Origin: Macrostomum lignano
Lineage: Eukaryota
Reading direction: 5' to 3'
Assembly: GCA_002269645.1 (NCBI GenBank)
Contig: NIVC01000292.1
Span: 372,001-436,000, forward strand
Length of the DNA: 64,000 nt
The notes under the pieces are model-generated. The model made no database searches. It had not been told where the DNA came from and was given only the letters and a program-made list of their open reading frames with translations. The number at the start of each line of letters is the position of its first letter. Positions within the stretch are counted from its first letter, which is position 1. The position numbers and the translations under genes are program-made. Below are positions 2,089 to 43,642 of the stretch, one piece after another.

Positions 2089-3530
2089 TGACTGAAATGC
2101 AAATTAATATAAAATCAAGCAATTCTGCAGATGACTTACTTCCAGGTGTAATTACAATATTGCATTTTTTGTAATTTACCATATTAAGTTGGATGAAGAT
2201 TTCATAAGTATACTCAAACTGAAATACTCATTCATAAGTATGAGTAAATAAGTATATATAGTATATATATATGCATAACTTTATGCATAAAGCTCATGCA
2301 TAAAACATCAGATGAAATCGTATGTACTTATAAAGTGGGAAATGAGAAGGGAACTCAAAAATTATTTAAACATGTGTGATCAACTGAATAAATTAACTTC
2401 TGAATGATTTAAAACATACATTATTTTTTTTTTGGGTTTAGATAATGTGTTCAGAATAAATTTGTCCCTCCATTCGTAAAGCTGTCTGAATAAAAAATCC
2501 TGCTAAATTATTTCTATCGACAGATCAATAAAAATCTAGTGATTTGTAATCGATCTTGACTTGTAAAACTCCTCATGCAGATTGGTATAGCCAGACTGCC
2601 CAGACAGAAAGTATATTCTTGATTTTTTACTAATAATGTAATGAAAGAAATCCAACGATGATCAGAAGAAAATAATATGGTGAAATATTCACGAAAATTA
2701 CTTATACTTAGCAGTCTGTCGAGGCCAAGACCGCCCTACTTGTTCTCTGACAGCTGTTGTGTTAGTGTTTACAAATGAAACGCTGCCTGCAAGTACATTC
2801 TTGTTGGTTGTTAAAATATAAAATTGTGTAAAATTAAAATTATTTTCTAAAATACGTTATCATTTATTGCCATTTGTTATACTGAAGTTAATTTTAAGAA
2901 TAGATGAATGAGTAGAGCGCACAAATGGCACAGGCCATTTATTGAAAAAAGCCTCGAAATATTTGTGTTAAATTACCTATATCAAGCAAAACTTTCTCAT
3001 TTAAATATGGTTTTTAAGTAGTTTTTAAAATTAAAAACTTTTTTCTGACACTTAGTAGCACTTTTTGTTATACAATTTCACACCGATTTTTACTGCAAAT
3101 ATACTTTGATTAAACAGTACAAAACTTTAAAATTATCGTGAATGCGAATCAATTTTCTAAGAACTCGACTCTAGGCCCATGTTGCATATGAAAGACGTTC
3201 ATACGAAGACGTAGACACACACAAGCACAAGCTTCCTCCTTGTGCGTCATTCAGACGCGAATTCAGAAAAAAATTGAAAGGGTTACCTGAGTGTCAAACA
3301 CAAAACTTACAGGTCAGGTGTTTGATTCCTATGTGGTCGGTGGTGACCTCTCAGTCCTTGGACTAAACATCCATCCATATGCATCCTTTAGATGCCTTTT
3401 AATAGCTATAGGGGCCTAGCTAAGCTGTTAGTTACATATCTGGCCTAATTGGGGCATGTATTATAATCAATGATCAATAATAATTATTATTGTTTAATAA
3501 TTGTCTTAAGTTAGTAAACTATTATTTATA

Positions 3531-4359
3531 CGAGGGGTGTCCCAAAAGTTCCCGGAATGTCTAACGTAGCTCTTCAACAGAGCCATGAAATTTCACGCCC
3601 ATGGTGTCAAATGAAAGGAAATTTTGTCACAAAGAATACAAAGTTAAAATCATGTTGATATCTTTTTTTATTCAAGAGCTACAGCAAGAAACTTGCGCAA
3701 AGGTCAGGTGTAGTGTTACACAACCTCAACAATCTATGGCAATAATTTTTTCATCTCCATTTTTGGAGTTTTTCATTTTGAATTCATTCACAGCAGACTG
3801 GCCATCTCTAAAGCGTTCGATCCATCCGTAAATTGCAGTTTTTTTCAGGCTGTTCTCACCGTGGATAGAGAATAAGTGGTTAGAAATCTTGGCTCCACTC
3901 CATCACTACTGACCAAAGGGCAAAAACTTGACTTCGCTGACTTTCAAGGCTCTGAAAAGAACTCATTTTCGCAAAGAAATTTCAAGTTGAAAGCAAGCGC
4001 TTGGTACAAATTATTTGCACTCGCGCAAAAGCTCAGATTAGCTTTATGAGCATTTCTCCTTTTTCCATAGACACTACCATGTCTTTCTGACACGTCAGTA
4101 GCACAAATTCAAAATGAAAAACTCCAAAAATGGAGATGAAAAAATTATTGCCATAGATTGTTGAGGTTGTGTAACACTACCCCTGACCTTTGCGCAAGTT
4201 TCTTGCTGTAGCTCTTGAATAAAAAAAGATATCAACATGATTTTAACTTTGTATTCTTTGTGACAAAATTTCCTTTCATTTGACACCATGGGCGTGAAAT
4301 TTCATGGCTCTGTTGAAGAGCTACGTTAGACATTCCGGGAACTTTTGGGACACCCCTCG
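3531..4359. mobile_element. Tc1/mariner-type non-autonomous element (MITE), 829 bp, about 254-bp TIRs
   Basis: 3531-3784 is the near-perfect reverse complement of 4106-4359. Ends are CGAGGGGTGT...ACACCCCTCG, flanked by TA on both sides. No transposase ORF. Confidence 0.88.
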
Positions 4360-4741
4360 TAGTTGTAGCAAATATGATTTTTTTATTTGACTTGGTAAGA
4401 CTAGTCTAGACTATATATATATATTATAATTACTATTAGACCTAGTTGTAAGTTTTTGTTTGTTAGTTGTAATAAACATAATCTAAATTTATTTGCAAAT
4501 TTATATCCATCTATCCAGTTTTGGCAAATTGTTTATATACTTCTATTAATCCTAATACAGTTTTTATTATCAATTTTTCAAATATAATACCTAAGCCTTA
4601 GATAAGGTATAGATATTAAGGGCTATTAAAGCATTTAGGGTAAGGTTAAGAATTAGAATTTTTTTATTTAATTCTTTGGTTTTATTACAAGTATTTAAAG
4701 CTATACATATTTTATTCAAAGTTAAACTTACCTGTTTTGTA

Positions 4742-32751: not shown

Positions 32752-33573
32752 ATGGCCTCCACCCAGGCAGCCGGCATCGCTGAGTCCCTCCGCCAGTTCC
32801 GCCAGTGGCTGGACGACATGGCGGACCCGCGCACCAAGGACTGGTTCCTCTGCGGCGGCCCCGAGACCATCCTGGTCATCTGGCTGATCTACCTCGTCGG
32901 GGTGATCGCCGGGCCTCGGCTGATGCGCGACCGGCCGGCCATGAACCTGCGCGGCGTGGCGCTGGTGTACAACTTCGTGCTGGTGCTGCTGTCCGTGTAC
33001 ATGGCCCACGAGTTCTTCTGGTCCGCCTGGCTGGCGGGCTACAACCTGGCCTGCGACCCTGTGGACTACTCGGACTCGCCTCTGGCCATGCGCATGGCCT
33101 CCGTGTGCTGGTGGTTCTACGTCTCCAAGGTCATCGAGCTCATGGACACCGTGCTCATTGTCCTGCGCAAGAAGAACGAGCAGCTGAGCTTTCTGCACAT
33201 CTACCACCACGCCACCATGATCCTGCTGTGGTGGAGCGGCGCCCGCTACGTCCCCGGCGGTCACTCGTTCTTCTGCGCCCTGCTCAACAGCAGCGTCCAC
33301 GTGTTCATGTACCTGTACTACTTCCTGGCGCTGCTCGGCCCCCACATGCGCAAGTACCTCTGGTGGAAGCGCTACCTCACCCAGATGCAGCTGCTGCAGT
33401 TCCTGCTGTTCAGCGTGCACTCCTTCGTGAACATCATGCAGCCGAACTGCGGCTTCCCCCGCGGCTACAGCATCTCCGTGGTCATCTACGGCATCTCCCT
33501 CATGCTGCTGTTCGGCAACTTCTACAGGAATGCCTACAAGAGGACCAGCGGAGCTCGGAAGGTTGCCGACTGA
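32752..33573 (+). CDS. ELOVL: Elongation of very long chain fatty acids protein (ELOVL4/7-like), 273 aa, uninterrupted CDS
   Basis: ELO family motifs DPRTKDWFL, YNLACDPVDYS, SKVIELMDTVLIVLRKKNEQLSFLHIYHH (HxxHH), NSSVHVFMYLYY and KYLWWKRYLTQMQLLQF. Confidence 0.95.
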   Translation: MASTQAAGIAESLRQFRQWLDDMADPRTKDWFLCGGPETILVIWLIYLVGVIAGPRLMRDRPAMNLRGVALVYNFVLVLLSVYMAHEFFWSAWLAGYNLACDPVDYSDSPLAMRMASVCWWFYVSKVIELMDTVLIVLRKKNEQLSFLHIYHHATMILLWWSGARYVPGGHSFFCALLNSSVHVFMYLYYFLALLGPHMRKYLWWKRYLTQMQLLQFLLFSVHSFVNIMQPNCGFPRGYSISVVIYGISLMLLFGNFYRNAYKRTSGARKVAD

Positions 33574-35405: not shown

Positions 35406-36401
35406 CTAAAACATATTAAACTCGCTTGGCAGTTGATTACGATACGGCCAGCCGCACTCCTGGCCGAGCCAGCGAATTTCGAGGCCGAGGCTCTGCTCGT
35501 TGAAACGTCGAGGGCCGCGCCGAAGGTCCGATAGTGCGTAGTGCACAGCGCGCCTCCAAGCAGCGACTGCGTGCACGGGCTGCAGTTGGCGCAGATTATT
35601 TAAAACTGGCCGCAGAGTCTCGCGCTGTGGGAATTCGCGTCCGTCTCGAAATCTTCCAGCCTGAACCAAGTACAGCTTAATGGCCGTAATCAGGCGGCGG
35701 TAGCTGGCACGCTGAGCCTCCGGCAGGCTCTCGACAGCTTGTGTGAAGTTACCGCCGATTTCGCGCAGCGGCTGATCCTGCCTGACAAAGCCGGCCATCA
35801 GGGGCGGTATGCCAGAATCCAGTGGCTCCATTTTGATCGGCGGAACGGGGCGGGGACGCGGCTGGTTCATCGGCCGTACTCCATAATTCGGCGGCGGGGT
35901 GACAAGAGGTTTCACAGGCTGCTGCTTCGGCGGAGATCGGGAGCGGGGTCGAGACTCTTGTTGCGCTGATGAGGGACGGGGTCCAAGTCTCTTGCGGATG
36001 GGCGGCGGCGGGGCTTCACTCGTGCTCAAAACGATAGCCGACTTGGTGTTGGGGGGTTGGCGTTGAATGGCGGCCGGGGAGATAGCAACTGGCACGTCGG
36101 CGTGACGCTTGAGCAGTGCTACTCGAGCTTCCGAGATGGATGGCGACGGGCGGGCGTCTGAGGTGGATGGCGGCGGACGGGCGTCTGAGGCGGATGACGG
36201 TGGGCAGGCGTTTGAGGTGGATGGCGGAGGACGAGTCACAACCGAGGCGATGCGGGGCTTGGGACCGGGCTTACTTGGTCTCGTAGGCTGGCGCTCGGGG
36301 ACAGGCAAGTCGCTATCTGATTCGTCGTCGAACTCATCAGCGTCAGAATCGCTGAGGCGGAGGTCATCCTCTAATTGCCTAAGACTCTCCTCGGAGTACA
36401 T
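35406..36401 (-). CDS. Retrotransposon ORF3, 331 aa, unknown function (not env-like)
   Basis: ATG-initiated, intact ORF in the element's sense orientation between the pol tail and the 3' LTR. Acidic and Pro/Ser-rich N-terminal two-thirds, then an amphipathic-looking C-terminal ~125 aa. Confidence 0.7.
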   Translation of the reverse strand: MYSEESLRQLEDDLRLSDSDADEFDDESDSDLPVPERQPTRPSKPGPKPRIASVVTRPPPSTSNACPPSSASDARPPPSTSDARPSPSISEARVALLKRHADVPVAISPAAIQRQPPNTKSAIVLSTSEAPPPPIRKRLGPRPSSAQQESRPRSRSPPKQQPVKPLVTPPPNYGVRPMNQPRPRPVPPIKMEPLDSGIPPLMAGFVRQDQPLREIGGNFTQAVESLPEAQRASYRRLITAIKLYLVQAGRFRDGREFPQRETLRPVLNNLRQLQPVHAVAAWRRAVHYALSDLRRGPRRFNEQSLGLEIRWLGQECGWPYRNQLPSEFNMF

Positions 36402-36778
36402 GATTGGGGACTGATTGCTTGATCAGTATAGGGTCTTAAAAATCGCTTGGATAGTAGAAATTTTAAAAGTCGGGCTTGACAGTAGTGATTGCGGAGGATT
36501 CGGGAATTTCGGAGAGCAGGAGGCTTGGGATCTGATTGTGCAATGGCCTAAAAATGCTTATATTTACTGACTATTGTTCACAGACAAGGGAGGTCCTCTT
36601 GTTTTCGTGACCAACCTCATTTTTCTACGCTCTTTGGGCTCTAGTTTCTTTGTCGATCGATAATTTGAGGGGTCCTTTGTGCATAGCAAGGGTCTAGTCG
36701 AGGGCTCTCTTTGTCTAAAATTTGGGGTCTGTTGGGCGAATGGGGACGGCGAGGGAGGGGTAGGAAGGTGTAGACGGG

Positions 36779-37490
36779 CTAAAATTCTAAGTTGCGCAAG
36801 AGGTTTAGTGCTAATAGTAGTCTGTCTAGATGACAGTTGCAACGCTGTTTATTTTGGGGTGGGGGCCTTAAATTGTAGGGGTGACGACGCGGGGGTTCGG
36901 GATCTCGCGGGGCAGGAGAGGGGGGTTGGGGCTGAGGGATCTCTTCGTTTGGGGCCTCACTCTCTGACTCATCGGTCATTTCATTCTCTTCCTCTGTTTG
37001 GGCTTCACTCCATTCTTCTGGCTGGATTTCATTGTTTTCTTCTTCTAACTCTTCGTTCTCTGCTTCTCTAATTTGGCATCTCCAATTAATTTCTTCTTCA
37101 TCGGATTCTTCTTCAGATTCAACTGGTTCGGGCAAGATTAATTTTTGGGAATTTCGGCTGGGTTGGCCTTCCTTAATTACAGGTTGTCTCTTAGGTTTAG
37201 CGGAAGTGGGGATGGGAACAGGGGCGGAATCAGGGGCATCTCGCTGGCCTTCCTTAGTGATTTGTTCTGGGGTTGAGTTCGGGACTGGAGTTAGGTTATC
37301 TCGATGCACGAGCATTTCTTTCCCTACTAATTCTCCTTCTTCTTCTTTCTGGACTTTGAAAACCACTTCTGATAATTGGGCTAAAACTCTAAAGGCGGAT
37401 CTCTTCTTTCGGTGGAACTTGTGGGATTCTTCGCTATCTAGCTGGGGGTTATTAATCAGTGCAAGGCAACCTATAGGGATTCTAGGGGTA
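36779..37490 (-). CDS. Integrase C-terminal region (GPY/F-like motif plus acidic tail), in the -1 frame relative to pol
   Basis: The frame reads PIGCLALINNP..SHKFHRKKRSAFRVLAQLSEVVFKV, resembling the gypsy 'VGD.VL...KL...W.GPF.V.....V.Y.V' segment, and later HPYNLRP; it overlaps the pol stop at 37471. Confidence 0.65.
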
Positions 37491-42694: not shown

Positions 42695-43642
42695 TGTTAC
42701 AGGGGTCTTGGGGGAGGGAAGTTTTCCTATTGCTGACACCAAATTGTTGTAGGGTAAGTTATGGGATTCTTGGGGATTTCTGATAGATGTGCTAGTTTTA
42801 TTACTAATAGGAGTAAGCCAATGGTTGCTCCTGGTGGCGTGAGTGTCCGAGCGGCAAGACACTGTCTAAATTAAACTTAACTAGTCCGAGGGAATAAAGA
42901 TGGGAGAGGGGAATTAAGGGCTTCGCGATGGATCAGAGTTGCCTGGGAAAGCACACTAATGGGAACTTCTAAATACTAATAGGGAATGCTGACAGCATTA
43001 GATAAGAAGGTAATCTGCCTAATGAATGTGGGAAATTTCTACTAGGAAGGGTCGGGAGCGGGGATGCTTGGGGGAGGATCAGACTGTAAGTCCGAGGGAA
43101 TAAGGCTGTACACCTGTGCAGACAGAATGTCCACAAAGAGGGGAGAGGATTGAGGGGCGGGGCGTATATTCTCTGGGAAAGAGGAGGAAAGGGGAGCGGC
43201 TTGGGGTAGGACTGCACGTCCTGGGGAGAGTGGGGAAAGGAGGCCTGTACGCTTCTGGCTGTACGAAGCTCCGTGGGAGAGGGAAGGCGGAGCGCCTTTA
43301 AATGACTAAGACCAATTCAGATCTATTTTTGGAACAATTACAACCGCTGGGGCCAAGACCGGAGTCTAAAATTGGCAGGCGGAGGAAACCAACGAGCGCA
43401 AGTTCTCCTTCGTTTATTTTTCTCTCTCTCTTTTATAGTATTACAGGCAAAAATGGCGTACGTATTAAAACTAATTAAACATACAGAATTAGGCTAAAAG
43501 CTACTATTGATGCTATTTTACTACTTAACAATACTAAAAACATATATTTATTAGGCACAGAATTCTTCAATCGAATATAAAAAATAGTCGTATTTATAAG
43601 GCAATGTATAAGTATAGTAGGCAAGGAATAATGGCTCTTACA
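42695..43642 (-). repeat. 5' LTR (948 bp)
   Basis: TG...CA ends; identical by eye to 34293-35240; followed in sense orientation by the PBS. Confidence 0.96.

Follow-up and report, generated by a model that had tools for sequence, protein, structure and literature searches.

A conserved, non-env third gene of Gypsy elements in Macrostomum lignano, with a predicted internal promoter

What is an intact third open reading frame that does not resemble env doing in a young Gypsy retrotransposon, and how is it expressed? The question is raised by an element in the window analyzed here, a 64,000-nt stretch of the M. lignano genome. An earlier note on this DNA had read the frame, ORF3, as an accessory protein made from a spliced subgenomic RNA. 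The accessory protein has stood up, as ORF3 is non-env, is under purifying selection and has an anatomy like that of a nuclear factor; the spliced RNA has not.

The element and its third open reading frame

The element is a 9.35-kb Ty3/Gypsy retrotransposon on the minus strand, the strand of all coordinates given for its parts, with LTRs, primer binding site (PBS), polypurine tract (35252-35241), gag and pol (order PR-RT-RH-IN) all present. Its LTRs had been noted to look identical, and they matched with 100% identity over a 950-nt hit. The 5′ LTR (43642-42695, 948 bp, TATA at 43437) and the 3′ LTR (35240-34293, the same sequence) are both bounded by TG..CA, the target duplication is 4 bp (AAAA), and the copy is young. 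The 5′ LTR contains the YY1-like motif CGCCATTTTT at 43458-43449, and the PBS (42690-42673) is presumably of the tRNA-Leu type. LTR ends in the window (42695-42760) and at many other loci carry stacked relics of older LTR-end/PBS junctions, and even near-identical elements can differ in having either the perfect complement of the tRNA or an A-rich variant as their PBS.

The gag frame encodes 337 aa (42611-41598) and has near its 3′ end a GGGAAAC heptamer of the -1 frameshift type (41607-41601); with pol in the -1 frame, a programmed frameshift is likely from the sequence. The pol frame (41619-37471) departs from that of sister copies near 37,485, past the integrase core, so that the C-terminal tail of the integrase (37495-36779) is read in a different frame. 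In sister copies pol is uninterrupted at about 1,550 aa, and the change in the window copy may be peculiar to it or reflect an error in the assembly. Outside the element, the window holds an inverted repeat (3529-4361), likely a young MITE, whose 256-nt arms match perfectly and enclose a 321-nt spacer, and a single-exon host ORF on the plus strand (32752-33573), presumably elongase-like, which ends about 700 nt from the 3′ LTR. As a lead only, the long LTRs fit the Gmr1/Osvaldo clade traits given in an extract of PMC3286476.

ORF3 is a 331-aa frame with an ATG start (36401-35406), lying in the element's sense orientation between pol and the 3′ LTR, exactly as the earlier note had described it. 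An open frame of this length appeared in 0 of 2000 base shuffles. The acidic start, the basic clusters IRKRLGPRP and RPRSRSPPK and the helical C-terminal part that had been read from the translation are all present. Residues 1-30 (36401-36312) form an acidic amphipathic helix with a net charge of -7 to -11 in 28/28 ORF3 types; it is activation-domain-like, and a leucine-rich export-signal pattern fits it too (17 of the 28 types, where 3.1 would be expected). The likeness to acidic activation domains and to classes of export signal rests on general consensus patterns. The linker is basic in the same 28 types and rich in Pro, Gln and Ser, with short conserved motifs. Residues 211-331 (35771-35409) make up a conserved domain, net basic in 28/28 types, in which K/R and W/Y positions are conserved; AlphaFold2 run on 27 sequences predicted it confidently as all-helical (pLDDT 84.5, pTM 0.80), and outside it the protein is predicted to be disordered except for short helices.

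There is nothing in this protein to suggest an envelope. The claim that it has no signal peptide, transmembrane segment or furin-like site was confirmed by a hydropathy scan and a motif search: the window ORF3 has no hydrophobic segment (maximum Kyte-Doolittle 19-mer 1.01) and no R-x-K/R-R furin site, and a hydropathy scan of 28 types found no transmembrane segment or hydrophobic signal peptide, the maximum 19-mer being 0.27-1.11 and the N-terminus acidic. The types have 1-5 Cys and 0-3 sequons and no Cys-rich glycosylated ectodomain. We therefore rejected an env or env-like fusion glycoprotein on the missing hydrophobic segment, the missing furin site and the few Cys and sequons, and also a fusogen of the sORF2/FAST kind, a short single-pass membrane protein, on the missing hydrophobic segment. 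Searches of Pfam, PDB sequences, Foldseek, VIA and the ESM Atlas returned no match to ORF3 above background, which does not exclude a known fold. No known DNA-binding domain matched the fold. Nor is ORF3 a J-domain protein: the HPD motif is absent from the window ORF3 and six sister proteins, and a DnaJ match was found in 0/27 members. We conclude that ORF3 is a genuine non-env accessory protein without a match to any known family.

Spread, selection and exchange of ORF3

When the C-terminal 134 aa were searched against the M. lignano genome, with the best 150 of 229 candidates scored, at least 151 matches were found, down to 24% identity. Among 77 long loci with the domain that we fetched, a sample biased because it was picked through ORF3 matches, gag/pol or an LTR pair is also present in 70, and the full domain lies in a frame of at least 280 aa in 56. 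An unbiased count started from the integrase: ORF3 or a remnant of it lies downstream in 90 of the best 92 integrase matches (at least 74% identity; one more, at a contig end, was dropped), and the remaining two are broken inside the integrase tail. ORF3 is thus a conserved, near-universal, non-env gene of the whole Gypsy clade in this Macrostomum genome.

That it is a neutral passenger or an env remnant is scarcely credible. Only 7/23 of the closest DNA matches have an intact ORF3, which could favor such a reading but is as expected of ageing copies, and copies with a broken ORF3 have a broken pol too. Compared with the types nearest to it, the window type gave a domain dN/dS of 0.02-0.13, with dS from 0.7 to saturation; across distant types it was 0.15-0.46 with dS saturated. 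Residues 1-200 gave 0.07-0.19 between types, and residues 1-30 gave 0.03-0.18. Such strong purifying selection at saturated synonymous sites, with values far below 1, refutes neutrality, and the gene's near-universal presence in the clade and its lack of any env hallmark also speak against a remnant. Among the findings that the earlier note had named as fatal to its reading, we observed neither neutral breakage in most sister copies nor dN/dS near 1 nor a known env.

A profile search of 1.84 billion proteins returned six matches. Five are clusters named M. lignano, three of which are GenBank gene models; according to an extract of PMC5730564, these models were derived from RNA-seq transcripts, and they are indirect evidence that members of the family are transcribed. 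The sixth cluster (P0007) has the same architecture and at most 44% identity to anything in the M. lignano genome (scored over the best 150 of 256 candidates); to judge from the sequences, another genome probably has the family too. Our literature search found no description of this ORF3 family. In PMC12801592, on M. lignano LTR elements, 'ORF' and 'splic' are absent from the main text; its supplements or an earlier classification paper may show ORF3.

ORF3 does not descend in step with the rest of the element. Among elements whose Gag and RT agree at 97-100%, the identity of the ORF3 domain ranges from only 44% to 100%, and between types an RT dS of 0.09-0.26 stands against a domain dS of at least 1.2, which points to recombination of old alleles and not to fast positive selection. 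In 12 elements, mean identity was 0.94-0.97 for gag, RT and RH, 0.63 for the ORF3 domain and 0.60 for U3. The domain correlated with U3, R and U5 in these elements (Mantel r 0.34-0.53, p ≤0.015) and also tracked the 3′ UTR; it showed no correlation with gag, RT or RH. ORF3 is swapped together with the 3′/LTR module between near-identical gag-pol backbones. The pairing with the LTR is not strict, since the window element and another (L090) have R and U5 at an identity of 1.00 and most of U3 in common (0.86), yet their domains differ at a dS of 2.0; the correlation may be due to nothing more than linkage.

The gene is also kept by elements that lack pol. All 17 pol-less elements examined (L074, L075, L077, L078, L082, L120, L121, L123, L131, L133, L134, L138, L139, L142, L143, L145 and L146), about 5 kb long with LTRs mostly 98-100% identical, keep the frame of the ORF3 domain, and most also have a conserved mini-Gag of about 195 aa. 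Both ORF3 and mini-Gag are under purifying selection in these elements; for ORF3, pooled within-family changes were 14 synonymous versus 10 non-synonymous (P 0.0005). The mini-Gag has a capsid-N-like part and a C-x2-C..H..C knuckle-like end, with dN/dS mostly 0.1-0.2. The pol-less lineage is old and still mobile, and has ORF3 types in common with autonomous elements. One pol-less element (L134) carries an inserted transposase-like ORF of 701 aa.

Expression of ORF3

Conservation upstream of ORF3 predicts an internal promoter at 36661-36532, with conserved blocks at 36661-36655, 36609-36602 and 36543-36532 and a TATA-like block at 36566-36557. The predicted start site lies at about 36535, and the sequence from there to 36401 is free of ATG. 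Outside the subclade of the window element, 11/19 types have a canonical TATA box 72-151 nt 5′ of the ATG with no ATG between, where 0.18 would be expected; a twelfth was left out because an ATG lies inside the box, and the types are related, so the P-value is inflated. Within the window's own subclade a canonical TATA is found in 0/10 types, which have an AT-rich block of conserved position followed by a conserved block about 25 nt on. CCAAT boxes occur upstream of ORF3 in several types, and 15 of 16 clade-B elements have a GGTCCAG block 104-135 nt 5′ of the ATG. One RNA-derived gene model (P0001) begins farther 5′ than the start site predicted here.

The strongest independent hint of such a promoter, again from sequence, is a stand-alone gene that we found in three near-identical host contexts (L127:7400-8160, L129 and L130, on contigs C846, C3012 and C2203 of genome G000). 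No LTR pair, gag or pol lies within 7.6 kb upstream of the three copies, nor, for L127, within 8 kb downstream. About 200 nt of the ORF3 promoter, TATA included, are present at 69-71% identity; the coding part gave no blastn match. It is a 118-aa ORF that corresponds to the C-terminal domain alone, followed by an AATAAA, and it is annotated as an RNA-seq-derived gene model (P0005/P0008). All three copies are intact, with four synonymous and two conservative differences.

The earlier note had proposed a splice from a donor overlapping the PBS into 36410. Its motifs are where it placed them: TACTGAT at 36428-36422, CAG at 36413-36411, 9 nt 5′ of the ATG, and GGTAAAG overlapping the PBS (42690-42674). 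The branch-like heptamer with its CAG (36428-36411) is conserved in the closest relatives only, the CAG being kept in 4/4 closest types, and the donor is not conserved: 16 of 54 PBSs of ORF3-bearing elements have no GT at all. In the window it lacks a G at +5, and GT[G/A]AG is given as the top donor motif of the host in an extract of PMC8629364. Acceptors are at chance level: 18/29 types have a YAG within 30 nt of the ATG (17.1 expected) and 9 a YTNCAG (10.4 expected). Branch and acceptor are found together in 5/29, and no pyrimidine tract precedes the window acceptor. Contigs of X1-X5 span the acceptor and cross 36410 unspliced, and no joint to a leader and no loose end at 36410 is among the contig matches listed; this is weak evidence, since these are only presumed RNA runs and contigs drop rare forms. 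A subgenomic RNA could also arise by spliced-leader (SL) trans-splicing to the CAG at 36411, as 30% of host genes are SL trans-spliced (extract of PMC8629364), and one sister lineage has a pyrimidine-rich YTNCAG just 5′ of its third ORF, though within pol coding sequence. Splicing from the PBS donor to 36410 is not supported by these comparisons, and a spliced origin of either kind, cis or trans, seems to us quite improbable.

An internal promoter, as predicted, fits the comparative data better than splicing, with motif evidence that is strong in the relatives and weak in the window's own subclade. We consider it probable that Pol II starts between pol and ORF3, giving a short mRNA that is not spliced and that terminates in the 3′ LTR. 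Such a promoter is not universal among related elements. Those with 57-66% integrase identity (loci L158-L165 and L167-L245) have other orphan third ORFs under purifying selection, families D, E and F, none of which matched Pfam, and these lie close behind pol or in frame with it. Family D, a borderline ORF3 homologue, starts 4-9 nt past the pol stop. Family F is in frame with pol in several copies, with open frames of 681-1798 aa in 5/14 full matches. Family E is related to family F, and no homology of either to ORF3 was demonstrated (for F, by profile comparison).

Possible function and related systems

We think it rather likely that the ORF3 protein acts in the nucleus on its own element. 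More tentatively, and with less than even confidence, we propose that ORF3 is an own-promoter gene for a nuclear activator or anti-silencer of the element's LTR. The internal promoter would give the short mRNA and this the protein, whose acidic N-terminal helix would recruit co-activators, whose Pro/Gln/Arg linker would supply import signals and whose basic helical domain would bind the cognate LTR or its chromatin; this division of labor, modelled on the logic of Tas, is possible but somewhat short of probable. Counting against an activator, the internal promoter and the cognate U3 have no excess of 8-10-mers in common, and the domain's fold resembles no known DNA-binding domain.

A shuttling adaptor of the Rev/Rex/CERV kind is a possible but clearly less probable alternative. 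The leucine-rich N-terminal helix would then be a CRM1 export signal, and the Arg/Ser/Pro linker and the domain would bind the genomic RNA of the element, either to export it or to shield it, for instance from SL trans-splicing. The excess of export-signal patterns would suit this, but the pattern is missing in 11/28 types while acidity is kept in all; a scan of the element's LTR, leader and 3′ region, 150 nt at a time, gave a best z of -2.7 and no response element with a strong fold, and we found no resemblance to the CERV domains. That pol-less elements retain ORF3 suggests a protein that prefers to act in cis or is specific to its type, as the activator and the adaptor would both allow. This retention, together with mini-Gag, would also suit a protein that assists the integration complex or the particle, acting in nuclear import, chromatin targeting or chaperoning and not as a regulator of expression, as would the family F frame joined to pol in one sister lineage. 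We regard this as improbable: a tight Gag/Pol partner would be expected to follow gag and RT, which the ORF3 types do not, and homology of family F to the ORF3 domain is unsupported by profile comparison.

Under either the activator or the adaptor, a host copy of the domain alone would be expected to act as a dominant negative, and the stand-alone gene is a candidate domesticated inhibitor. The activator proposal can be extended to a lock-and-key system, with activator-LTR modules traded between backbones and adopted by old pol-less satellites with mini-Gag, and with the host copy of promoter and domain as a dominant-negative restriction factor; as a whole we hold this extended form to be unlikely. 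If ORF3 is a self-encoded activator or export factor, simple retrotransposons evolved the regulation of complex retroviruses independently; this would explain why pol-less elements retain the gene and would offer a candidate host-domesticated inhibitor. M. lignano is a transgenic model flatworm, so promoter, localization and knock-down tests are directly feasible.

Several known systems resemble ORF3 in part, as far as extracts of the papers cited here describe them. Foamy-virus Tas/Bel1 is made from an internal promoter (PMC7828637, PMC4929722) and, like ORF3, is an accessory ORF 5′ of the 3′ LTR; the internal promoter, the acidic activation region and the nucleic-acid-binding domain are predictions in our case. 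ORF3, however, belongs to a Gypsy retrotransposon without env, and we found no sequence or fold match to Tas/Bel1 and no common promoter/LTR site. CERV of the C. elegans element Cer1 is a spliced product with gag exons and M and G domains (PMC10309623). Both are orphan, putatively nuclear accessory proteins of animal Gypsy elements with candidate NLS/NES and disordered linkers, but ORF3 is a single exon placed behind pol and has just one helical domain, a small one. Grande gene23 of plants has its own promoter and a nuclear product and is antisense (PMC7264820); ORF3 is likewise a family-wide conserved orphan with a putative promoter and nuclear product, but is sense, animal and swapped as a module.

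In Oikopleura, the env of the Gypsy-like elements Tor3b/4b is a third ORF expressed from an internal promoter (PMC4402516), as is predicted here, and those elements too have similar Pol and otherwise divergent genes; their product, unlike ORF3, is a membrane glycoprotein. The non-env ORF3s of bdelloid rotifers (PMC5408684) and sORF2 (10.1101/2025.03.14.642691) are also non-env cargo at the env position that is exchanged as a module, but they are recognizable enzymes or transmembrane fusogens, and ORF3 is neither. Non-env third ORFs were already known, few of them with a function in animals (CERV, sORF2); here a protein family with neither a name nor an assigned fold occurs in almost all members of a large and recently active Gypsy clade of M. 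lignano.
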